Assembly (NCBI GenBank): GCA_963816635.1
Contig: CAWFLK010000021.1
Span: 154,443-218,442 of the forward strand
Direction of reading: 5' to 3'
DNA: 64,000 bases
Source: Ilumatobacteraceae bacterium
Lineage (GTDB): Bacteria; Actinomycetota; Acidimicrobiia; Acidimicrobiales; Ilumatobacteraceae
Of the stretch, positions 10,729-35,202 are shown in pieces (within the stretch, counting starts at the first letter, position 1; each line of letters opens with the position of its first letter). The position numbers and the translations under genes are program-made. Under the pieces are notes generated by a model that saw only the letters and a list, made by a program, of their open reading frames with translations, was not told the DNA's origin and did no database searches.

Positions 10729-11754
10729 ATGGCCAAGCGGGACGAGCACGGCGCGCCGGTCGAACTCGCGGCGGCCGGGCGGGTGGTCGCCATCACCAGC
10801 CCCGACAAGATGATGTTCCCCGAGCCCGGCCTCACCAAGCTCGACCTCGCCCGCTACTACCTCGCCGTCGAGGAGTCGATCATGCGCACGGTGCGGGACC
10901 GCCCGACGCTGCTGCAGCGGTTCCCGAACGGGGTGGCCGGCTCGTCGTTCTTCCAGAAGCGGATCCCCGACTCGGCGCCGCGGTGGCTGCAGACCACCAT
11001 CGTCAGCACCCCGAACGGCACGACGTCGCGGGCGATCGTGATGGCCGACATCGCCCACGTGCTGTGGGCCGCCAACATCGGATGCCTCGGGTTCCACCCG
11101 TGGCCGTGTCGGGCCGGCGATCCGGAGAACACCGACGAGCTGCGCATCGACCTCGACCCCGGTCCCGGCGTCACCTACGCGATGGTGCAGGAGGCCGCAG
11201 CCGAGACGTTCGATCTGCTGGCGACGCACGGCATCCGCTCGTACATCAAGACGACCGGCAACCGCGGCCTGCACGTGTACGTGCGCGTGGAGTCGGGGTG
11301 GACGTCGATCGGTACGCGTCAGGCGGCCGTCGCCGTCGCCCGCGAGCTCGCCGAGCGGCGGCCGGAGCTGATCACCGCGAACTGGTGGAAGGAGGAGCGC
11401 GGGCCGCGGGTGTTCGTCGACTTCAACCAGAACGCGCCGCACAAGACCGTGTTCGGGGCGTGGTGCGTGCGGGCCCGCCCGGGCGCCCAGGTGTCGACGC
11501 CGTTCGCATGGGACGAGCTGGCCCACATCCGGCCCGACGAGCTGACGATGGTGACCGTGCCGCCGCGCCTCGAGGCGCGCGGCGACCCGTGGGCGACGAT
11601 CGACGACGAGCCGCAGTCGATCGCTCCGCTGGTCGAGCGCTACGAGCGCGACCTCGCCGCCGGCATCCCCGACGCCCCGTGGCCGCCGGTGTACCCGAAG
11701 ATGCCCGACGAGGCACCCCGCGTCCAGCCGAGCCGCGCCCGCAAACCGGACTAG
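10729..11754 (+). CDS. NHEJ DNA polymerase/primase (LigD polymerase domain, stand-alone)
   Basis: VAITSPDKMMFPE ... SSFFQKRIP ... LGFHPWPCRAGDPENTDELRIDLDPGPG ... GNRGLHVYVRV ... FVDFNQNAPHKTVFGAWCVRARPGAQVSTP matches the LigD Pol/PrimPol motifs. There is no ligase or phosphoesterase domain attached. The start is MAKRDEH at 10729. Confidence 0.8.
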   Translation: MAKRDEHGAPVELAAAGRVVAITSPDKMMFPEPGLTKLDLARYYLAVEESIMRTVRDRPTLLQRFPNGVAGSSFFQKRIPDSAPRWLQTTIVSTPNGTTSRAIVMADIAHVLWAANIGCLGFHPWPCRAGDPENTDELRIDLDPGPGVTYAMVQEAAAETFDLLATHGIRSYIKTTGNRGLHVYVRVESGWTSIGTRQAAVAVARELAERRPELITANWWKEERGPRVFVDFNQNAPHKTVFGAWCVRARPGAQVSTPFAWDELAHIRPDELTMVTVPPRLEARGDPWATIDDEPQSIAPLVERYERDLAAGIPDAPWPPVYPKMPDEAPRVQPSRARKPD

Positions 11755-11770: not shown

Positions 11771-11819
11771 TTCTGTGTCAGGAAACACGACGCCCGACGT
11801 CGTGTTTCCTGACACAGAA
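11771..11819. terminator. bidirectional intrinsic-terminator-like hairpin (22-bp perfect stem, 5-nt loop)
   Basis: TTCTGTGTCAGGAAACACGACG-cccga-CGTCGTGTTTCCTGACACAGAA lies between the convergent ligD-pol stop (11754) and the eamA stop (11831). There is no U-tract, as is usual in high-GC genomes. Confidence 0.6.
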
Positions 11820-11830
11820 CCGGGTCGGCG

Positions 11831-12763
11831 TCACGCGGGGACGAGCGGGGCCTCGGGCTCGGCGCGGGCGATCAGGGCCAGGCCGGCCAGCACGATCGCC
11901 GCGCCGAGCCAGCCGGCGGGGTCGAGGCGCTCGTCGAGCACCACCATGGCGGCGATGGCGGCGGTGACCGGCTCGGCGAGCGTGAGCGTGACGGCCGTCG
12001 AGGTCGCCAGCGTGCGCAGGCCGTAGCCGTAGAGCAGGTAGGCGACGGTGGTGGCGACGATCCCGAGGTGCAGCACCATCAGCAGGCCCGACCAGGTGGC
12101 GAGCCAGGCGAGCGGCTCGACGAACAGGAACGGGGCCAGGCCGAGCGCACCGAGCGTGAAGATCCACGCCATGACGGTTCCCGAGTCGGCGCCGGCCTCG
12201 ACGAGCGACTTGGCCGCGGTGGCGAACAGGGCGTAGCCGAGCCCGGCGAGCAGCGAGCAGAGCACCCCGAACGCCCCCACCGGCGCGTCCCCGGTGCGCT
12301 GCGACAGCACCAGCACCGCCCCGCCCAGCACGGCCAGCGCCGTGGCGGCCGCCCAGCGGTTGCTCGGCCGCCGATGCAACACCACCAGCTCCCACGCGCC
12401 GACGAACACCGGGCCACTGCCCAGCGCCACCAGCGTGCCGACGGCGACGCCGTTGTGATCGGTGCCGGCGAAGAACGCCGGCTGGTAGATCGCCACGCCG
12501 AGGGCGCCGATCAGCACGGCCGGCAGCTGACGGCGGCGCGGCACGAGCGGTGTCGTCGCGCGGCCGGTCGTGCGGTGGCGCCGGCTGACGACGACGGCGA
12601 CGAGCACCAACCCGGCGGCACCGATCAGGATGCGCATCGCCCCGACGCCGAGCGCCGTCGCGTCGTCGGGTCCGAGGGCCTTGGCGGTGCCGGTGGTGCC
12701 GAACGCGACGGCGGCGCCGAGCACGGCGAGGCGGTCGAGCGGCCAGCGGCGCGCGGCGGTCAT
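11831..12763 (-). CDS. EamA/DMT-family membrane transporter
   Basis: The protein has ten-TM-like hydrophobic segments. The start is probably MTAARRW at 12763, overlapping the RidA stop. Confidence 0.7.
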   Translation of the reverse strand: MTAARRWPLDRLAVLGAAVAFGTTGTAKALGPDDATALGVGAMRILIGAAGLVLVAVVVSRRHRTTGRATTPLVPRRRQLPAVLIGALGVAIYQPAFFAGTDHNGVAVGTLVALGSGPVFVGAWELVVLHRRPSNRWAAATALAVLGGAVLVLSQRTGDAPVGAFGVLCSLLAGLGYALFATAAKSLVEAGADSGTVMAWIFTLGALGLAPFLFVEPLAWLATWSGLLMVLHLGIVATTVAYLLYGYGLRTLATSTAVTLTLAEPVTAAIAAMVVLDERLDPAGWLGAAIVLAGLALIARAEPEAPLVPA

Positions 12764-13152
12764 CGGGCGGCGATGACGGCGATCTCGAGCAACCACTCGG
12801 GACGCACCAGGCGCGGCACCGTCACCAGCGTCGATGCCGCGAGCCGGCCGCCGAGGAAGCGATCACGGGCCGCCATCACCAGACCGAGCGATGCCAACTC
12901 GTCGACCACGACGTAGGTCGTCACCGACACGACGTCGGCCGGGCCCATGCCCGCCTCGTCGAGGAGGGTGGCGATGTTCGACCACACCACCGCCGCCTGC
13001 GCCTCGACGCCGTCCGGCACCGTGCCGTCGGGCGCCACCGGCACCACCCCCGACGTGTGCAGCAGGTGCGCCGACCCGTCGCTCACCACGGCGTGGGCGT
13101 AGTTGGCCGCCGGCGGCGCCAACCCGACCCCCGACACCACCCGGTTCACCAC
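12760..13152 (-). CDS. RidA/YjgF family (reactive intermediate deaminase-like) protein
   Basis: The 130-aa protein reads ANYAHAVVSDGSAHLLHTSGVVP ... DVVSVTTYVVVDELA ... ASTLVTVPRLVRPEWLLEIAVIAA, which is the YjgF fold. Confidence 0.8.
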   Translation of the reverse strand: MVNRVVSGVGLAPPAANYAHAVVSDGSAHLLHTSGVVPVAPDGTVPDGVEAQAAVVWSNIATLLDEAGMGPADVVSVTTYVVVDELASLGLVMAARDRFLGGRLAASTLVTVPRLVRPEWLLEIAVIAAR

Positions 13153-13187: not shown

Positions 13188-13239
13188 GATTTCCACAAGC
13201 AGAATCGTGCAGATCTGCACGATTCCGCGCCCCAGAATC
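13188..13239 (+). repeat. copy A of the novel palindrome-containing element (family 1)
   Basis: GATTTCCACAAGCAg-AATCGTGCAGATCTGCACGATT-cCGCGCCCCAGAATC. The 22-bp core is a perfect palindrome. A C-rich tract (CCACCCCCCGCCCCC) lies just upstream. The copy sits 38 bp upstream of the secreted-protein gene. Confidence 0.7.
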
Positions 13240-13277
13240 CGCGGAACCGATGGCCCGCCGGCAGCGTCGAACCGATC

Positions 13278-14082
13278 ATGCACGCACCGCTCCTCGCGCT
13301 GACGCTCGTCGCCGGCCTCGCCACGACGTCATCGCCACCGGACGACGCCGCCGACGCCATCGCCTTCGAGACGATCGCGGTCATGTCCGACACCACCGGC
13401 ATCAACCTCGTGCCCCACGTGCCGATCGCCGTCCGCAACGCCGACGACCTTGCCGACCTGGAGGGGATCATGAGCGACGGCTTCTCCGGCGACCTGCCTG
13501 ACCGCGTGATGGCCGCGGTCGAACAGGTGCCCACCGGCATGATGCCGCTCGTCGGGATCATCGACACCAGCTGCAGTCCGCCGTCGACCCCCGGCTTGTC
13601 GATCGACGCCGACGGCAACGTCGCGATGTACGCCCTCGACCCGGTGCCGAACCAGCCGGAGTGCTTCGTGGCCGTCGACACGGTCGCCGTGCTCGCCGTC
13701 GATCCGGCCGACGTCCCGATCGGCGCCGCCGGCCCCGCCGAGCTGCTCGCCTTCGAACGCCTCTCCGGCTCGGTGACCGGCGCTCCCCCGGCCGTCGAGC
13801 TCGGGCCCGACGCCACCGCGGCCCTGTCGGCGATGGTCGGCGCCGACGGCGACGTGCCGAACCTCCCGCCGCTCGTCAAGGGGACGCGCCGGTTCGCGTT
13901 CGTCACCGCCGGCTGCCAGGACGCCACGGCCGAGCTGCTGGTCACCCGCCGCTTCCTCGCAGCCACGCCTCTACACCGATCCGGTCGACCTCGGCATCGC
14001 CTGCGCCCAGGCCGAGTTCTTCCTCACGGTGTTCGACGTCCCCGATTCGGTCGTGTGGCCGAACGCCGCCCTCGGCCGCTGA
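13278..14082 (+). CDS. hypothetical exported protein (signal-peptide-like N-terminus), apparent frameshift near 13968
   Basis: The protein starts MHAPLLALTLVAGLATTSSPP and the ORF is Asp/Ala-rich with high GC3. GC3 collapses after ...QDATAELLV. The adjacent frame continues protein-like (LYTDPVDLGIACAQAEFFLTVFDVPDSVVWPNAALGR) to a TGA at 14080. The listed 720-aa ORF 12834..14996 is a read-through artefact that fuses this gene, repeat B and the aldolase. Confidence 0.45.
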
Positions 14083-14086
14083 TCGC

Positions 14087-14138
14087 GATTCTGGGGCGCG
14101 AAATCGTGCAGATCTGCACGATTTTGCTTGTGGAAATC
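14087..14138 (-). repeat. copy B of the family 1 element, inverted relative to copy A
   Basis: The reverse complement is GATTTCCACAAGCAa-AATCGTGCAGATCTGCACGATT-tCGCGCCCCAGAATC, which is 50 of 52 identical to copy A. It lies 4 bp after the exported-protein stop and 30 bp before the aldolase start. Confidence 0.7.
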
Positions 14139-29325: not shown

Positions 29326-29556
29326 GTGCGCCGCTCGACGGTGCTGCTCGTCGTGGTGTTCGTCGGGCTGGTCGTCCTCTACTTCTCGGTACGCACCGAG
29401 AAGATCGACTACCGGGGCGAACTGTTCGACGTCACCGAGGAGACCACCGCGTCAGGCCCTCCGGTGCGCCCGCTCGAGGGCTACGCGACGTGGTCGAGCC
29501 AGGGCGCGCAGAGCCCGTCGACGTCGCGGATCTGGATCCGGTCGCGATTGGCGTAG
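29326..29556 (+). CDS. small hypothetical membrane protein (76 aa)
   Basis: The ORF has a GTG start, one TM helix (VLLVVVFVGLVVLYF) and high GC3. It overlaps the convergent moeZ-like 3' end by about 75 bp. Confidence 0.25.
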   Translation: MRRSTVLLVVVFVGLVVLYFSVRTEKIDYRGELFDVTEETTASGPPVRPLEGYATWSSQGAQSPSTSRIWIRSRLA

Positions 29557-30649
29557 GTGACCTCGTTGGCCGGGTCGACCTGCAGCTTGAACGTGCGCAG
29601 CGTCATGTCGGTCGTGTCGATGGCGAGGATCCGCCCGATCAGCGGCTCGCCGATGCCGAGCAGCACCTTGATCGCCTCCAGTGCCTGGATCGAGCCGACG
29701 ATCCCGGGCAGCACGCCCAGCACGCCCGCCTCGGCACAGCTCGGCGCCAGCTCGGCCGGGGGCGGCTCGGGCACCATGTCGCGGTAGGTCGGCCCGACCA
29801 GCGGGTGGAAGACGCTGACCATCCCCTCGAAGCGGAAGATCGAGCCGTGGACCACCGGGATGCCGAGCTTCACGCTGGCGTCGTTCAACAGGTAGCGCGA
29901 GGGGAAGTTGTCGGCCCCGTCGACGATGACGTCGTAGCCGCTGATGATGTCGATGATGTTCTCGGCCGAGAGGCGGGTGTCGTACGTGACGACGTCGACG
30001 TCGGGGTTGAGCGCCACGAGCGTCTTCTTCGCCGAGTCGACCTTGCGATCGCCGATCCGGTCGATGTTGTGGAGGATCTGACGTTGCAGGTTGGAGGCGT
30101 CGACCTCGTCCATGTCGACGATGCCGAGCGTGCCGACGCCGGCCGCGGCGAGGTACAGCGCGGCGGGCGAGCCGAGTCCGCCGGCGCCGAGCAGTAGCAC
30201 CTTCGAGGCGAGCAGCTTGGACTGGCCCTCGACGCCGACCTCGGGCAGCAGCAGGTGGCGCATGTAGCGCACCTTCTGCTCGGGGGTGAGCGTCACCGGC
30301 GTCGTCCAGTCGCGGCCCTCGTCCTTCCAGCGCCCGAAGCCGCCGGCCATCGACACGACGTCGGCGTAGCCGAGCTCCTGCAGCGTGCGGGCGGCGAACG
30401 CCGAGCGGACGCCGGCGGCGCAGTACACGACGACGGGCGCGCCCTTGTCGACGAGGCGGCCCTCGACCTGGGCTTCGAGGTGCCCGCGGGGGATGTGCAC
30501 GGCGCCGGGAAGGGCGCCCTGGTCGTATTCGTCGGGTTCACGGACGTCGAGCACCACGGCGCCGGCGGCGATGCGCTCGGCGGCGTCGGCGGTGCCGACC
30601 TCGGTGATCTCGGCTTTCGCCGCCGACAGGAGATCGCGGAACGTAGCCA
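29483..30649 (-). CDS. rhodanese-ThiF/MoeB fusion (MoeZ-like adenylyltransferase/sulfurtransferase) with rhodanese N-terminal
   Basis: The N-terminal rhodanese domain has the active-site motif (VVVYCAAGVRSAFAART). The ThiF domain follows (KVLLLGAGGLGSPAALYLAAAGVGTLGIVDMDEVDASNLQRQILH). The start is MATFRDLL at 30649. Sequence upstream in the listed ORF is the antisense of the repeat. Confidence 0.8.
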
Positions 30650-30714
30650 TCACCCAAAGCCTACCCATCCGGTCGGGAATCGCTCCCCGCCCCTCCACCG
30701 GCCCGGAGGACGAA

Positions 30715-30838
30715 GATTTCCACAAGCATTTTCGAGCGTTTCTGCACGATTTCGCGACCAAGAATCGCGAGCACCGCGCTTGCAAAGATTCTGGGGCGCG
30801 AAATCGTGCGTTCCCGCACGATTTTGCTTGTGGAAATC
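30715..30838. repeat. head-to-head pair of family 1 elements (C1 30715-30766 forward, C2 30787-30838 reverse) forming a 124-bp composite palindrome
   Basis: The reverse complement of C2 is GATTTCCACAAGCAaAATCGTGCGggaaCGCACGATTtCGCGCCCCAGAATC, with 10-bp hairpin arms. C1 has the same flanks but a degenerate hairpin. C-rich and G-rich tracts flank both sides. It lies between the moeZ-like start (30649) and the flotillin start (30963). Confidence 0.7.
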
Positions 30839-30885
30839 TTCGGTCCTGGCGGGCGGGAGGCGGCGGGGGCGGGGGTTTCTCTTGA

Positions 30886-30945
30886 CCGGGGGCGGGGAGG
30901 GGCGTAGACCCGTAGGTAGACAGGTACAATACAAATCGCTCCGGA
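30886..30945 (+). promoter_or_regulatory. AT-richer island with TTGACC and TACAAT hexamers upstream of flotillin
   Basis: TTGACC lies at about 30887 and ...GTAGACAGGTACAATACAAATCG at about 30925-30945. The spacing between the two hexamers is not canonical, so this is only a candidate promoter. Confidence 0.25.
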
Positions 30946-30962
30946 AGGCGGCGTCCAACCAC

Positions 30963-33038
30963 ATGCTCCCCCTGATCCTCGGGATCGCCGCGATCGTGCT
31001 CGTCGCGATCGTGCTGTTCCAATCGTTCCACAACATCGGACCGGCCCAGGTCGGCCTGGTCACGAAGAAGATCGCCCGCAAGAGCCTCGCCCAGGGCAAC
31101 CCCGTCGCCCGCCACGGCGAGGCCGGCTACCAGGAGCGCCTGCTGATGCCCGGGCTGCGCGTCCGTCTCTGGCCCGTCTACGGCGTCAGCAAGCAGCCCT
31201 GGGTCCAGGTGCCCGCCGGCGAGATCGGCGTGGTCATCGCCCAGGTCGGCAACCCGATCAAGATCGGCGCCAAGAGCGCTGACTTCCGCCCGGAGTTCGG
31301 CAACTTCTCCAACCTCGGCGCGTTCATCGACAACGGCGGCCAGAAGGGCGTGCAGCGCCCGGTGCTGCCGCCGGGCACCCTGGTGCCGATCCACCCGGCG
31401 GCGTTCCTCGTGATCACCGCCAGCCGCGTGTACGGCGTGCCGGTGTCACGCACGGTCGCCGGCACGCCGGTCCCCGCCGGTCAGACGCTGCAGCCGTCGT
31501 CGTTCGGCCTCTCCGACGAGCAGCTGCGGGTCACGATCATCGGCCCGGTCGACGAGACCGACATGGTGGGCGTCATCACCGCCCTCGAGGGCGAACCGCT
31601 ACCCGCCGGTGACATCGCCAGCCGACTCGGCGGCTTCGAGGACGTGGTGGTGATGGAGCAGGCCGGCGCGTCGGATGCCGAGATCATCGATGTGCTGCTC
31701 GGGCGCAAGAACGAGCTGCACAACAACTACCAGGACTTCCAAGCCTTCATGGATCACGGCGGGCGCATCGGGCTGCAGCACGACACCCTGCTGTACGGCG
31801 CCTACCTGCTCAACCCGTTCCTCGTCGCCGTGGAGATGGTGCCGATGCTCGTGGTGCGCCAGGGCGAGGTGGCCGTGATGAAGAGCTTCGTCGGCCTGCC
31901 GACGCTCGACACCAGCGGCGTCGACTTCAAGTTCGGCTCGATCGTGCACCCCGGCCGGCGCGGGATCTGGCAGGAGCCGCTGCGCACGGGCAAGTACCCG
32001 CTCAACCCGCGCATCTACGCCACCGAGATCGTGCCCACGTCGATCCTGACCCTGAACTGGTCGAGCATCGTGAGCCAGGCCCACAACCTCGACGCCTCGC
32101 TCAGCCCGATCGAGGGCAAGAGCCGCGAGGGTTTCGTGTTCCGGATCGACCTGCAGGTGCAGATCCACGTGAGCGACACCAAGGCGCCGAAGGTCATCTC
32201 GATGGTCGGCACGATGCAGAACCTCGTCAACGAGGTGCTCCAGTCGGCGGTCGGCAACCACTTCCGCAACACGCTGCAGCGGCTCGAAGCGGTGCGCTTC
32301 ATCGAGACGCGCGACCAGGTGCAGGCGTCAGCGATGGAAGCGGTGACCCACTACCTCACCTCGTACGAGGTGGAGACGCGTGGTGTCTACATCCAGGACG
32401 TGGTCTTCCCCGAGCAGCTGGTGGAGGTGCTGACCCAGCGCGAGATCGCCAAGCAGGAGAAGGCGACGTTCCACGAGCAGCGCGAGGCGCAGAACGCCCG
32501 CATCGAGGTGGAGAAGGCCCGCGGCACCGCCGACATGCAGGGCCAGCTGGCGACGTCCCAGGTGTCGATCGAGATCAACTCGAACGCCGCCGAGGCGCGT
32601 GCCGCCCAGGCGCGAGGCGAGGCGGCCTACATCGAGACCACGGCTCGCGCCGAGGCGACGCGCATCGAGGCGATCGGACGCGCCGAGGCCACCAAGGTCG
32701 AAGCGGTCGGCCTGGCGGAGGCGACGGCGACCGAGGCGGTCGGCCTCGCCGAGGCCCGGGCGTACCAAGCTCAGGCCGACGCCCTCGGCCCGCAGGCGAC
32801 AGCGCTGGTGGCGGCGGTGAACGCCGTCGCCGAGGGACGCGTCAACGTCGTGCCGGAGGTTCTGGTGACCGGTGGTGGCAGCAGCATCGAGGGGCTCGCG
32901 GCGTCGCTCATCGGCCGCTTCGCCCCGCGTCCGCCGAACCGCAACGGCGGCAACGGGGATTCGCTGCCCCCGCCCCCGCCGGCGCCCGAGCTCGAGCTCG
33001 AGCTCGAGGTGGAGCCCGACCAGGCGTCGGCCGGCTGA
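30963..33038 (+). CDS. flotillin-like SPFH/band-7 protein with long C-terminal Ala/Glu-rich coiled coil
   Basis: The protein has an N-terminal TM helix (MLPLILGIAAIVLVAIVLF) and an SPFH domain. It ends with ...EAQNARIEVEKARGTADMQ ... EARAAQARGEAAYIETTARAEATRIEAIGRAEATKVEAVGLAEATATEAVGLAEA. The 691-aa frame is intact. Confidence 0.8.
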   Translation: MLPLILGIAAIVLVAIVLFQSFHNIGPAQVGLVTKKIARKSLAQGNPVARHGEAGYQERLLMPGLRVRLWPVYGVSKQPWVQVPAGEIGVVIAQVGNPIKIGAKSADFRPEFGNFSNLGAFIDNGGQKGVQRPVLPPGTLVPIHPAAFLVITASRVYGVPVSRTVAGTPVPAGQTLQPSSFGLSDEQLRVTIIGPVDETDMVGVITALEGEPLPAGDIASRLGGFEDVVVMEQAGASDAEIIDVLLGRKNELHNNYQDFQAFMDHGGRIGLQHDTLLYGAYLLNPFLVAVEMVPMLVVRQGEVAVMKSFVGLPTLDTSGVDFKFGSIVHPGRRGIWQEPLRTGKYPLNPRIYATEIVPTSILTLNWSSIVSQAHNLDASLSPIEGKSREGFVFRIDLQVQIHVSDTKAPKVISMVGTMQNLVNEVLQSAVGNHFRNTLQRLEAVRFIETRDQVQASAMEAVTHYLTSYEVETRGVYIQDVVFPEQLVEVLTQREIAKQEKATFHEQREAQNARIEVEKARGTADMQGQLATSQVSIEINSNAAEARAAQARGEAAYIETTARAEATRIEAIGRAEATKVEAVGLAEATATEAVGLAEARAYQAQADALGPQATALVAAVNAVAEGRVNVVPEVLVTGGGSSIEGLAASLIGRFAPRPPNRNGGNGDSLPPPPPAPELELELEVEPDQASAG

Positions 33039-33215
33039 GTCCGGCACTCATCGCGCGCCTCGCCGCGGCCGAACCGCCAGCGGCATGGCGGCACCCACCG
33101 GGGCGAGGGTCCTCATCGCACGAGGCGCGACGCATTAACGTCCGATGGTCGTGGCGCCGAACGCGCTCGGCGCCACCACGATCGCGCAAGGCTCACCGTC
33201 GACCCCCGCCGAGGA

Positions 33216-34043
33216 GTGCCCATGACGACCACAGATGAAACGCTCGATTCCGTCGCCGATGCCGGGCCCGGCTACGTGAAGATCGTTGCCGCCGAGCTGA
33301 TCGGCACGCTCATCCTGATGCTCGTCGGTCCGGGCAGCGCCATCCTCGCCCTCAATGCAGTCGGCACGTTCGGCGTCGCATTCGCGTTCGGTCTCGCCCT
33401 GCTGGCGATGGCCTACAGCATCGGCCACGTGTCCGGCTGCCACATCAACCCGGCCGTCACGCTGTCGTTCTGGTTGGTCCGAAAGGTGACGTTCGCACAG
33501 GCGATCGCCTACTGGGTCGCCCAGTGTGTCGGGGCGATCCTCGGCGCGTGGATCATCTACATCATCTCCGACGGCGGCGACCTCGACAACACGGGCGTGT
33601 TCGCGGCGAACGGATGGGGAAGCAAGCTCGGTAGCCCGTTCGGGATGTCCGCCGCCATCATCGTCGAGATCGTGTTCACCGCGCTGTTCGTCTTCGTGGT
33701 GTTGTCGACCACCACGAAGGGCTATCTGCTCGGCTTCGGCGGCCTCGCAGCTGGGCTGACGCTGGCGATGATCCACCTCGCGACCATCCCCGTCGACAAC
33801 ACCTCGGTGAACCCGGCCCGCAGCCTCGGCACCGCCGTGTTCGCCGGGACCGACGCGATGAGCCAGCTCTGGGTGTTCATCGTCTTCCCGCTCGTCGGCA
33901 CGCTCGTCGGCGTGCTGATCTGGCTCCTCGTCCACGAGGACGACTTGGAGTCGACCATCCTCGGCCAGCAGAGGGCGCTCGTGGCGGCGCGGAACCGAGC
34001 CGCCGCCATCGCACGCGGTCCGCAGCAGAAACCTTCTGCGTAG
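33216..34043 (+). CDS. aqpZ: aquaporin Z-like MIP-family water channel
   Basis: The two NPA boxes (SGCHINPAVT and NPARSLG) and six TM helices are present. Confidence 0.85.
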   Translation: MPMTTTDETLDSVADAGPGYVKIVAAELIGTLILMLVGPGSAILALNAVGTFGVAFAFGLALLAMAYSIGHVSGCHINPAVTLSFWLVRKVTFAQAIAYWVAQCVGAILGAWIIYIISDGGDLDNTGVFAANGWGSKLGSPFGMSAAIIVEIVFTALFVFVVLSTTTKGYLLGFGGLAAGLTLAMIHLATIPVDNTSVNPARSLGTAVFAGTDAMSQLWVFIVFPLVGTLVGVLIWLLVHEDDLESTILGQQRALVAARNRAAAIARGPQQKPSA

Positions 34044-34078
34044 CGCGCCGACGACCACGAACGCGCGTTGACCGCCGC

Positions 34079-34431
34079 TCAGCCGGGTGGGAACACCCAC
34101 CCGGCGGCGCCGCGACGCCACGGCGTGGCCGACACGACGGCAGCGAGCGGGATCGGGCCGTAGATGTGCGGGAACCGGTCGTCGGCCGGGTCGCCGGTGG
34201 GCGACTCCTCGACCACCGGCGCGCCGAGGGCGTCGGGGTCGATCGCCAACAGCACCACCTCGTCGACGTCGGCGTAGAAGCGGTTGGCCACGGCGGCCAC
34301 CTGGCAGCGCGTGCGAAGCGTGGATGAACCCCTCCTCGTCGAGGGATCGCCCGCGGGTGGAGATGCGATAGCTCCCCGCCGCCTCGGCCGCCCGCCAGTC
34401 GTCGGGGAGGGCGGCGTGGTAGATCGTCACG
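34079..34431 (-). CDS. DUF952-family protein, apparent frameshift near 34300
   Basis: The N-terminus TIYHAALPDDWRAAEAAGSYRISTRGRSLDEEGFIHASHA is in the cobB frame tail. The C-terminus VANRFYADVDEVVLLAIDPDALGAPVVEE ... RFPHIYGPIPLAAV is in ORF 34079..34300. The GTG start overlaps the cobB stop (GTGA). Confidence 0.55.
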
Positions 34432-35202
34432 GTTCGACCACCAACGCCGGGAGGACGTCGGAGATCGAGCCGCGCACCACCACGTCGGCGAGCTGGTCCA
34501 TCTCGGTCGGTGAGCCGTTGACGATCACGACCCGGGCACCGCTGCGCACGGCGATCGGTACGCAGTTCGCCACCGGGTAGACCGCGAGCGTCGAGCCCAC
34601 GGCGAGCAGCAGGTCGCACTCGGCGCTCACCCGCAGCGCCCGGTCGATCACCGCCGGCACGAGCGGCTGGCCGAACGAGATCGTGTCGCTCTTCAGGATC
34701 CCGTCGCCGCACGCGAGGCACCGCAGGTCGTCCTCGCCCACGGCGACCCGCTCCAGCGCCTCGGCCATCGGCCGGCGATCGCCGCACGTCCAGCACCGCG
34801 TCCACCACGCGGTGCCGTGCACCTCGACCACCAGGTCCGGGTCGCTGCCGGCGCGCTGGTGCAGCTCGTCGGTGTTCTGTGTCACGAGGGCGCGCAGCCG
34901 CCCGTCGCGTTCGAGCTCGACGATCACGCGGTGGCCGGCGTTCGGCTCGGCGCTCCACACCGGCGCTCGCACACGGGCCTGCCACGACGCTCGACGGACA
35001 TCGACGTCACCCAGGTAGTGCTGCAGCGAGGACGCCTTCTCGGCGCCGGGGTTGGTGGTCCACAGCCCGTTCGGCCCGCGGAAGTCGGGAATGCCCGAAT
35101 CGGTGCTGATGCCGGCACCGGTCACCACCACGATGCGTTCGGCCGCCTGCACCAGGGCACGCGCTTGGTCGACCGCCGTCGGTGGCTCGGGCGTGGCGAC
35201 CA
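34427..35202 (-). CDS. cobB: NAD-dependent protein deacylase, Sir2 family
   Basis: GAGISTDSGIPDFRG ... TQNTDELHQRAG ... zinc ribbon CWTCGD...CLACGDG ... GSTLAVYPVA. The start is MVATPEPP at about 35202. Confidence 0.85.

Follow-up and report, generated by a model that had tools for sequence, protein, structure and literature searches.

A 124-bp palindrome lies between the start codons of two divergently transcribed genes, coding for a MoeZ/MoeB-like protein and a flotillin-like protein, in DNA of an Ilumatobacteraceae bacterium, and it raises the question of what kind of element has come to occupy this position. It might be a small mobile element, a regulatory site serving its two neighbors, or one copy of a dispersed repeat. 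The first-pass annotation of this DNA, a 64,000-nucleotide stretch which we refer to as the window, described the structure as a head-to-head pair of one element, likened it to an empty MITE and also considered a regulatory role. Our analyses indicate that the locus is probably one doublet copy of a clade-specific, non-autonomous repeat family of the REP/BIME/REPIN type.

A repeat finder applied to the 64-kb window returned two inverted arms of 56 nt each (30711-30766 and 30787-30842), which are 80% complementary and separated by a gap of 20 nt; the core delimited by GATTTCC...GGAAATC occupies positions 30715-30838. When 144 nt around it (30705-30848) were folded as single-stranded DNA, one long hairpin of -55.8 kcal/mol was obtained, compared with -23.4 +/- 3.4 kcal/mol for shuffles of the same sequence (z = -9.47). 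The composite palindrome, with its arms 20 nt apart as originally described, was thus borne out by both approaches. The flanks continue the inverted symmetry weakly (..CCGAA-element-TTCGG..). Within the long hairpin, the b-type arm C1 lies opposite an a-type arm, which gives small T-rich bubbles and leaves the palindrome imperfect. Bacteria tolerate long perfect palindromes poorly, and we infer from this that the imperfection favors stability.

The 13-mer GATTTCCACAAGC has four exact occurrences in the window (13188+, 14138-, 30715+ and 30838-), where 0.44 matches are expected by chance even with two mismatches allowed, and the hairpin motif AATCGTGC-N6-GCACGATT is present at the same four places. 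These matches confirm that both arms are copies of one element and that copy A, at 13188, belongs to the same family. The G+C content of the window is 72%, and the element is AT-rich relative to this genome. The features of the locus and of the related copies are listed in Table 1; the genes on both sides of the palindrome have the domains and the divergent arrangement that had been described.

Table 1. Coordinates of the palindrome, its neighbors and related units (window positions unless a locus is named)
Feature	Position	Strand	Remarks
Unit A, single a-type	13188..13239	+	perfect palindrome AATCGTGCAGATCTGCACGATT; C-rich tract before it, 13153-13187
Gene 1, between A and B	13278..14082	+	secreted-looking, no Pfam match; apparently resident gene, not cargo
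Unit B, inverted partner of A	14087..14138	-	hairpin identical to that of A; between gene 1 stop and aldolase start
MoeZ/MoeB-like adenylyltransferase-sulfurtransferase	29481..30650	-	ThiF + Rhodanese domains
Block just upstream of the moeZ-like start	30654..30680	-	CGATTCCCGACCGG..GGGTAGGCTTT..ATG; shared by L049, L050 and L129
C-rich tract and purine-rich junction, 5' of arm C1	30681..30714	+	tract CGCTCCCCGCCCCTCCACCGGCCC, junction GGAGGACGAA; family-wide C enrichment at -50..-11
Unit C1, b-type arm	30715..30766	+	GATTTCCACAAGC-ATTTTCGAGCGTTTCTGCACGATTT-CGCGACCAAGAATC; arm type common to 14 type-I doublets
Spacer, 20 nt	30767..30786		GCGAGCACCGCGCTTGCAAA; conserved in type-I doublets; tip of the long hairpin
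Unit C2, a-type arm	30787..30838	-	intact hairpin AAATCGTGCG-GGAA-CGCACGATTT at 30801-30824 (centre also read TTCC)
C-rich tract 5' of C2	30839..30877	-	plus strand G-rich: TTCGGTCCTGGCGGGCGGGAGGCGGCGGGGGCGGGGG
SPFH/Band_7 (flotillin-like) protein	30963..33038	+	Band_7/SPFH domain
Inverted pairs enclosing one gene	window 13188-14138; L004 6813-7611; L018 2285-3813; L032 4310-5868; L041 6203-7315; L044 3304-4408

Alignment of the four window copies defined a basic unit of ~52 nt, which consists of an invariant 5' arm (GATTTCCACAAGCA), a hairpin whose 9-11-bp stem carries a loop that varies freely, and the 3' arm TTTCGCGCCCCAGAATC. In these copies, the stem AAATCG(A/T)GC, the loop and the return stem GC(A/T)CGATTT are followed by CGCGCCCCAGAATC. 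In 65 of 67 units, the hairpin is preceded on its 5' side by GATTTCCACAAGCA. Pairing is somewhat enriched in the hairpin (82% of cells paired versus 78.2 +/- 0.9% in shuffles), and the covariation score was 0.152, compared with 0.099 in shuffles (reached by 0 of 500), most stem pairs being invariant. Units are found alone, in head-to-head doublets (~124 bp, with at least two types of fixed spacer) and in inverted pairs, 0.8-1.5 kb apart, around one gene. One further form was seen at L028:3004-3055, a 52-nt "mini" element with one hairpin and the terminal motif on both sides (GATTTCCACACGC-GAAATCGTGCCGATCGGCACGAAATT-GCGTGTGGAAATC); it is a near-perfect palindrome devoid of the CGCGCCCCAGAATC arm. 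Rfam 15 gave no match at the gathering score in the window and none at E <= 1 in 30600-30970, a promoter scan detected no promoter-like site inside the element, and BLAST of the doublet against plasmids gave no match. GATTTCCACA holds an 8/9 match to the relaxed DnaA box, TTWTNCACA, which is at most a lead.

A strict pattern, GATTTCCACA-N20-45-CGCGNCCNAGAATC, scanned against 185,579 species-representative genomes, gave 44 loci. One MAG, Ilumatobacteraceae bacterium MFD04944.bin.2.195, accounts for 42 of these (56 matches), spread over 19 of its contigs. The remaining two matches are in unrelated taxa, and by our own estimate ~2 chance matches are expected; with this pattern, no family members were detected beyond the one MAG among these genomes. 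Of 78 loci that a looser pattern retrieved from JGI metagenomes, ~52 are real: their G+C is 0.62-0.74, a profile made from the copies in the window confirmed them, and most come from soil. Two of the MAG loci, L012 and L023, are orthologues of the two window loci, with 94-96% nucleotide identity, so that the window must stem from a near relative of this MAG, and the exact MoeZ-like protein of the window is encoded on contigs from the ENA samples ERZ25039556 and ERZ25039464 and from a JGI metagenome. We estimate ~60-70 units per genome. It is unlikely that the MAG and metagenome copies are assembly artefacts, because long-read contigs from four samples agree. The repeat is restricted to a narrow Ilumatobacteraceae (Acidimicrobiia) clade of soil Actinobacteria.

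Two other repeated structures were noticed in the same data. A second, unrelated dispersed repeat, (CATTGC)GTTCCCCGGCCACGC(C)ATGAACTGCCTGCGCAG..GGCCGCTC.., has 13 copies in the MAG loci (e.g., L013:5285(-), L038:5628(-) and L042:7145(+)), none in the window and one in a more distant relative (L049:17136), with a stop codon shortly upstream of most copies. Between the convergent genes 10729-11754(+) and 11831-12796(-) of the window, positions 11776-11814 hold TGTCAGGAAACACGACG / CGTCGTGTTTCCTGACA, a perfect inverted pair whose centre is 5 nt long. This hairpin is also present at the orthologous MAG site (L012), with a variant in L015, and probably represents a separate small terminator or hairpin family.

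Among the fetched loci, we found 34 head-to-head doublets of 122-126 nt with two main spacer types. Type-I doublets (n=14), which have the same spacer as the window copy, were found at nine MAG loci, in the window and on four metagenome contigs, and all 14 show the same order: a b arm (GCATTTTCGAGCG..GCACGATTTCGCGACCAAGAATC), the spacer GCGAGCACCGCGCTTGCAAA and an inverted a arm (..CCCCAGAATC). Their mean pairwise identity is 91.5% within the element and ~50% in the 12-nt flanks; besides the locus studied here, a genome has this form at nine or more others. The second spacer type (..GAATCAGAGATGGGCCCTATCGCTGATTC..) characterizes ~11 further doublets, each 123 nt long. Arms occur alone ~2x as often as they do in doublets. 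The two-armed 124-bp form is, as these data show, a repeated unit in its own right. This also clarifies the status of the two arms at the locus under study: the hairpin of C2 is intact, in agreement with the first-pass annotation, and that of C1 (GCATTTTCGAGCG..GCACGATTTCGCGACCAAGAATCGCGA) does have mismatches. Their interpretation as decay has to be abandoned, because the same arm type is present in the 14 type-I doublets. C1 represents a second arm type that is conserved in nearly all doublets of this kind and is not a decayed copy.

Orthologous copies were compared in 18 cases, a set made up only of loci where both sides carry a unit; all 18 comparisons are filled on both sides, which by construction of the set cannot show an empty site. 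Identity between orthologues was 91% in the far flank, 88.5% in the C-rich tract that precedes the unit, 96% in the 5' arm (partly by ascertainment) and 76% in the hairpin interior. The C-rich tract diverges like flank, and sequence conservation spans ~52-62 nt, which does not support the proposed conserved unit of ~85 bp. Several orthologues whose flanks are 99-100% identical carry wholly different hairpin modules, the swapped modules match those of units elsewhere in the genome, and modules even switch between AAAAT and ATTTT arm types (L069/L045 and L113/L034). In C2, for example, the loop GGGAAC of the window corresponds to CGGAAC in L002 and to GTAGAC in both L023 and L048, and long-read contigs show the same exchange. 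With respect to the arms, a loop may lie either way round (GTCTAC/GTAGAC, GTTTCT/AGAAAC), the mismatched stem position included. From these sequence comparisons, we read the copies as old and positionally stable elements that were probably homogenised and shuffled by ectopic or local conversion, or more broadly by concerted evolution; an alternative to conversion is repeated replacement by some enzyme. The near-invariance of the arms could also reflect selection for function instead of selfish spread or homogenisation. The sole candidate for a filled/empty polymorphism is L058, which is filled, versus L011 5573-5660, which is empty and keeps both C-rich flanks; L058 combines flanking sequences that belong to two separate loci of the MAG, and this contig may be a chimera. 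Any recent mobility would therefore rest on one possible polymorphism.

Between the members of plus-minus pairs, which are 0.8-2.6 kb apart, lie ordinary genes (Table 1), among them a transporter-like and a LysM-like gene (both read by eye from the sequence) and gene 1 of the window. No transposase was seen enclosed by such inverted pairs. Partners flanking one gene are more similar to each other than random pairs are (interior identity 0.908 vs 0.751, resampling p < 5e-5), and the loops of A and B changed in step, being AGATCT/AGATCT in the window and AGACCC/AGACCC in the MAG. Elements are also clustered: by our own count, 10-11 of the 42 8-kb pieces contain at least two, and the Poisson expectation is ~2.7. 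Local copying and local gene conversion are candidates for the process behind similar partners and clustering. In the relative L129, a gene of similar size, again without a Pfam match, lies between RidA-like and aldolase genes and has no units around it. L129 and the window become homologous again directly behind AGAATC of unit A, and the homology continues into the first codons of gene 1, which are the only part of the two genes covered by the alignment. Because L129 keeps this counterpart without units and homology resumes after AGAATC, the units appear to have been added around a resident gene 1, and the 3' edge of unit A would be AGAATC. We also considered the window pair as a mobile unit-gene-unit cassette and rejected this, given the unit-free gene of similar size at the same position in L129. 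Judged by third-position G+C, gene 1 has a +1 frame change near 13925-13945, and its MAG orthologue is one continuous frame (..RRFLQPRLYTDPVDLG..); the frameshift reflects either a pseudogene or a long-read homopolymer error. Third-position G+C falls at the units themselves in the frame plots made, which cover the surroundings of A and B as well as L018.

Five strains carry the doublet at the moeZ-like/flotillin locus (the window, L001, L002, L023 from the MAG, and L048), and their MoeZ proteins are 94-99% identical (94% for L048). In L001, a 33-nt deletion in C2 (L001:9843-9866, corresponding to window 30787-30838) is bounded exactly by direct repeats of GATTTC, which fits erosion of the element by replication slippage in this strain. 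In three relatives with MoeZ 88-91% identical (L049, L050 and L129), both the doublet and the flotillin gene are absent. Comparison of orthologous moeZ-flotillin regions, which had been proposed as a check, thus established the doublet in five strains; it could not establish insertion, because the unit-free relatives also lack the flotillin gene, the whole interval differs and a clean empty site is unobtainable. The three relatives share with the window the block just upstream of the moeZ-like start, with the consensus CGA(T/A)TCCCGAC..GGTAGnnTTT..ATG, and this block is likely to be the core promoter of the moeZ-like gene, located outside the element.

Several other features of this region were noted. 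The flotillin-like and MIP-channel genes (window 30963-35000) are found between DUF952/SIR2 and moeZ only in the lineage of the window; in relatives with MoeZ 88-91% identical, moeZ directly adjoins SIR2/DUF952, and in L129 and L050 the aldolase/RidA cluster is only 1-2 kb away. Gene order thus shows a rearrangement of the moeZ-flotillin region. At the end of a JGI contig (L003:1-40, corresponding to window 30715-30750), whose flanks are 99% identical, the position of C1 is occupied by GATTTCCACAGAGCGTGCGCCAATTGGGCGCAGAGACG, which has the same terminal motif followed by a different palindrome. This variant is unique in all data and may be a rearrangement or, being at a contig end, an assembly artefact.

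With regard to genomic position, 43 of 67 classifiable units (of 70 in all) have a co-oriented gene on their GATTTCC side, and in 37 of those 43 the stop codon is 0-45 nt upstream of the unit (median ~18); four times it overlaps the unit as T-GATTTCC. Single units direct their 5' side toward a gene end in 26 cases and toward a gene start in 8, and between tandem genes they are sense in 14 cases and antisense in 3. A third of the units face gene starts, the window doublet included. The strand bias of single units suggests function, or at least selective constraint. The C-rich tract that had been noticed on the GATTTCC side is a family-wide property: in 65 units, C accounts for 54-60% and G for 18-23% of positions -30 to -11. 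That it is a general trait of gene 3' flanks was rejected by 221 unit-free gene ends (C 0.37, G 0.35). The tract is independent of neighbor orientation, with C at 0.54 where a gene ends there versus 0.48 in "opposite" contexts. Composition alone is shared, as we found no fixed motif at a fixed distance within the tract. Unit orientation did not correlate with local GC skew in the 8-kb pieces, which are noisy for such a test.

Machinery that could mobilise the units was sought in 607 kb of high-G+C sequence, that is, the fetched pieces around units, with a few units at the edges of 8-kb pieces. Queries of phmmer were E. coli RAYT (4ER8), IS608 TnpA (2A6M), ISDra2 TnpA and Sulfolobus TnpA, the RAYT and IS608 sequences being PDB-verified; against six-frame ORFs of the 607 kb, the best E was 0.3, the MAG being incomplete. 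A regular expression for the HUH motif returned only out-of-frame junk, no recurrent protein family was seen beside units except ABC-type ATPases (so read by eye), and no related autonomous IS with the same ends was seen within the 607 kb. Flanks compared by eye contained no direct repeat indicative of a target-site duplication at ten type-I doublet loci or at single units.

These data can be set against other explanations of the locus. A MITE would be an insertion sequence of the DDE type that has an internal deletion and depends on a full-length relative to move it in trans, and the palindrome resembles one in its terminal inverted repeats, in its size (~125-140 bp), in being non-coding and AT-rich and in its many copies. 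However, no direct repeats flank the doublets or single units compared, each "terminal inverted repeat" is itself a self-contained hairpin unit that occurs alone ~2x as often as in doublets, a doublet with one and the same spacer recurs at 14 loci, inverted pairs enclose ordinary genes without a transposase, and no protein recurs beside the units. We consider the MITE explanation, including the "empty MITE" suggested at first, very unlikely. Still less probable, to the point of being hardly tenable, is that the palindrome serves the divergent moeZ-like and flotillin genes as a dedicated operator or regulatory site. Such a function would fit both the location, between start codons that point away from each other, and the presence of the doublet here in five strains, but each genome has more than 60 copies, most of them at gene 3' ends; orthologues differ most in the palindromic core; L001 has lost 33 nt of arm C2; and relatives without the element keep the upstream block of moeZ, which lies outside the element. 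Conservation at the site says nothing specific about this locus, because the 18 comparisons for other units were also all filled. The regulatory role raised in the first-pass annotation thus finds no backing, and the copy at this locus is probably not a dedicated regulatory site; most likely it is a tolerated passenger between two divergent promoters. Integron attC sites were also considered and dismissed: the ends are GATTTCC/GGAAATC and not RYYYAAC / GTTRRRY, the units are dispersed over at least 19 contigs, and neighboring units are inverted, not direct. The end motifs of attC, dif and parS do not fit, and these readings were dropped.

A more serious, if still doubtful, possibility is that the units are functional 3'-end modules, in which C-rich leader and hairpin act in RNA as a terminator, an insulator or an mRNA-stabilising structure. 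In the sense direction, this would be a Rho-loading tract followed by a pause hairpin; in the antisense direction, an intrinsic terminator with the hairpin followed by UUUUGCUUGUGG, and doublets would be bidirectional. The 37 units with a co-oriented stop codon just upstream, the 26:8 and 14:3 biases of single units, the specificity of the C-rich, G-poor tract and an actinobacterial precedent, TRIT (PMC3152330), all point in this direction, and the explanation is compatible with a repeat-element origin. On the other hand, a terminator scan called no unit hairpin, its sole call being a weak 5-bp stem in the spacer; in the sense direction the stem is followed only by UUU, compared with UUUUGCUU after the stem in antisense; and the C-rich tract is kept where no gene ends, including both sides of the present doublet, which lies between two starts. 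Because the antisense strand has the better hairpin-plus-U tail, the orientation bias could also result from selection against the terminating orientation between co-transcribed genes.

We therefore favor a repeat family of the REP/BIME/REPIN type. REP families have been defined operationally by a tnpA-REP gene that lies no more than 1 kb from one or more of their copies (PMC6006769), and no such gene was found in the 607 kb, which derive in part from an incomplete MAG. Given that target-site duplications, a transposase and a RAYT-like gene were all lacking in these 607 kb, we call the family REPIN/BIME-like, not a MITE and not a proven REPIN. The family may have spread as DNA via hairpin-forming single-strand intermediates, with an enzyme acting in trans moving the units, as for REP/REPIN elements, and purifying selection would then have left copies mainly at gene 3' ends.

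The family is new and its kind is already known; its features do not as yet point to a new mechanism. There is a small chance that it represents something further, either a RAYT-free REPIN-like system, which places inverted hairpin pairs behind C-rich tracts and exchanges modules, or a mobile Rho-type terminator module. In the former case, some enzyme or process could set pairs 20 nt or about 1 kb apart; in the latter, a C-rich loading tract plus pause hairpin could colonise gene ends in a high-G+C host that may be poor in canonical terminators. Short interspersed palindromic repeats have been well studied in Proteobacteria, and the present family provides a clean, sizeable actinobacterial example. 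What makes it worth attention is the lack of a RAYT beside the copies, the link between C-rich tract and stop codon, the exchange of hairpin modules and the sister-like partners of inverted pairs that enclose one gene. Should a role in termination or an enzyme that mobilises the units be demonstrated, the family would inform on transcription punctuation in high-G+C actinobacteria and on the persistence of repeats. On the practical side, the repeat breaks short-read assemblies, with contigs that end or turn chimeric at units, and it could be used to type strains of this lineage, which lives in soil and is uncultured.

Our literature search retrieved no publication in which REP, RAYT and Actinobacteria are brought together, and nothing about intergenic repeats of Ilumatobacter. 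Among known systems, Correia elements (CREE) of Neisseria and ERIC/IRU of enterobacteria are likewise imperfect palindromes of ~105-160 bp that are dispersed between genes, sometimes beside promoters. Correia elements have TA target duplications, IHF sites and promoters, whereas neither a TA or other duplication nor a promoter-like site was found here. MITEs and mobile insertion cassettes share with the present family the inverted ends, small size and non-coding nature, as well as inverted pairs that in some cases enclose a gene; they differ from it in that here neither target-site duplications nor a parent IS were detected and gene 1 apparently has a counterpart in the unit-free L129. The TRIT (Tuberculosis Rho-independent terminator) motif of Mycobacterium, with 147 copies, has a conserved palindromic sequence and a narrow distribution of distances from stop codons (PMC3152330). 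The present family is similar in being a lineage-restricted actinobacterial palindrome conserved in sequence and structure, with on the order of 100 copies per genome and a narrow stop-codon distance. However, TRIT overlaps the stop codon (around -8), whereas the present units start ~0-45 nt after it; no sequence relationship was seen.

The closest comparison is with REP, BIME and REPIN sequences and their RAYT (TnpA-REP) partners in E. coli and Pseudomonas (PMC3116915, PMC3337134, PMC6006769). The units described here are longer than REPs (52 nt vs about 20-40) and have long invariant non-palindromic arms; the GT[AG]G head is absent, and GATTTCCACAAGCA occupies the 5' side of the hairpin. In contrast to REP/REPIN-RAYT systems, no RAYT/Y1-transposase gene was found beside any of the ~120 units examined, singlets outnumber doublets, a C-rich tract is present on the 5' side and the host is an actinobacterium of the class Acidimicrobiia. 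What the two have in common is a short extragenic imperfect palindrome in tens of copies or more per genome, which occurs both alone and in inverted doublets, the latter folding into a single long hairpin, with discrete classes of spacer length, no target-site duplication, vertically stable orthologous sites and a location near gene 3' ends.
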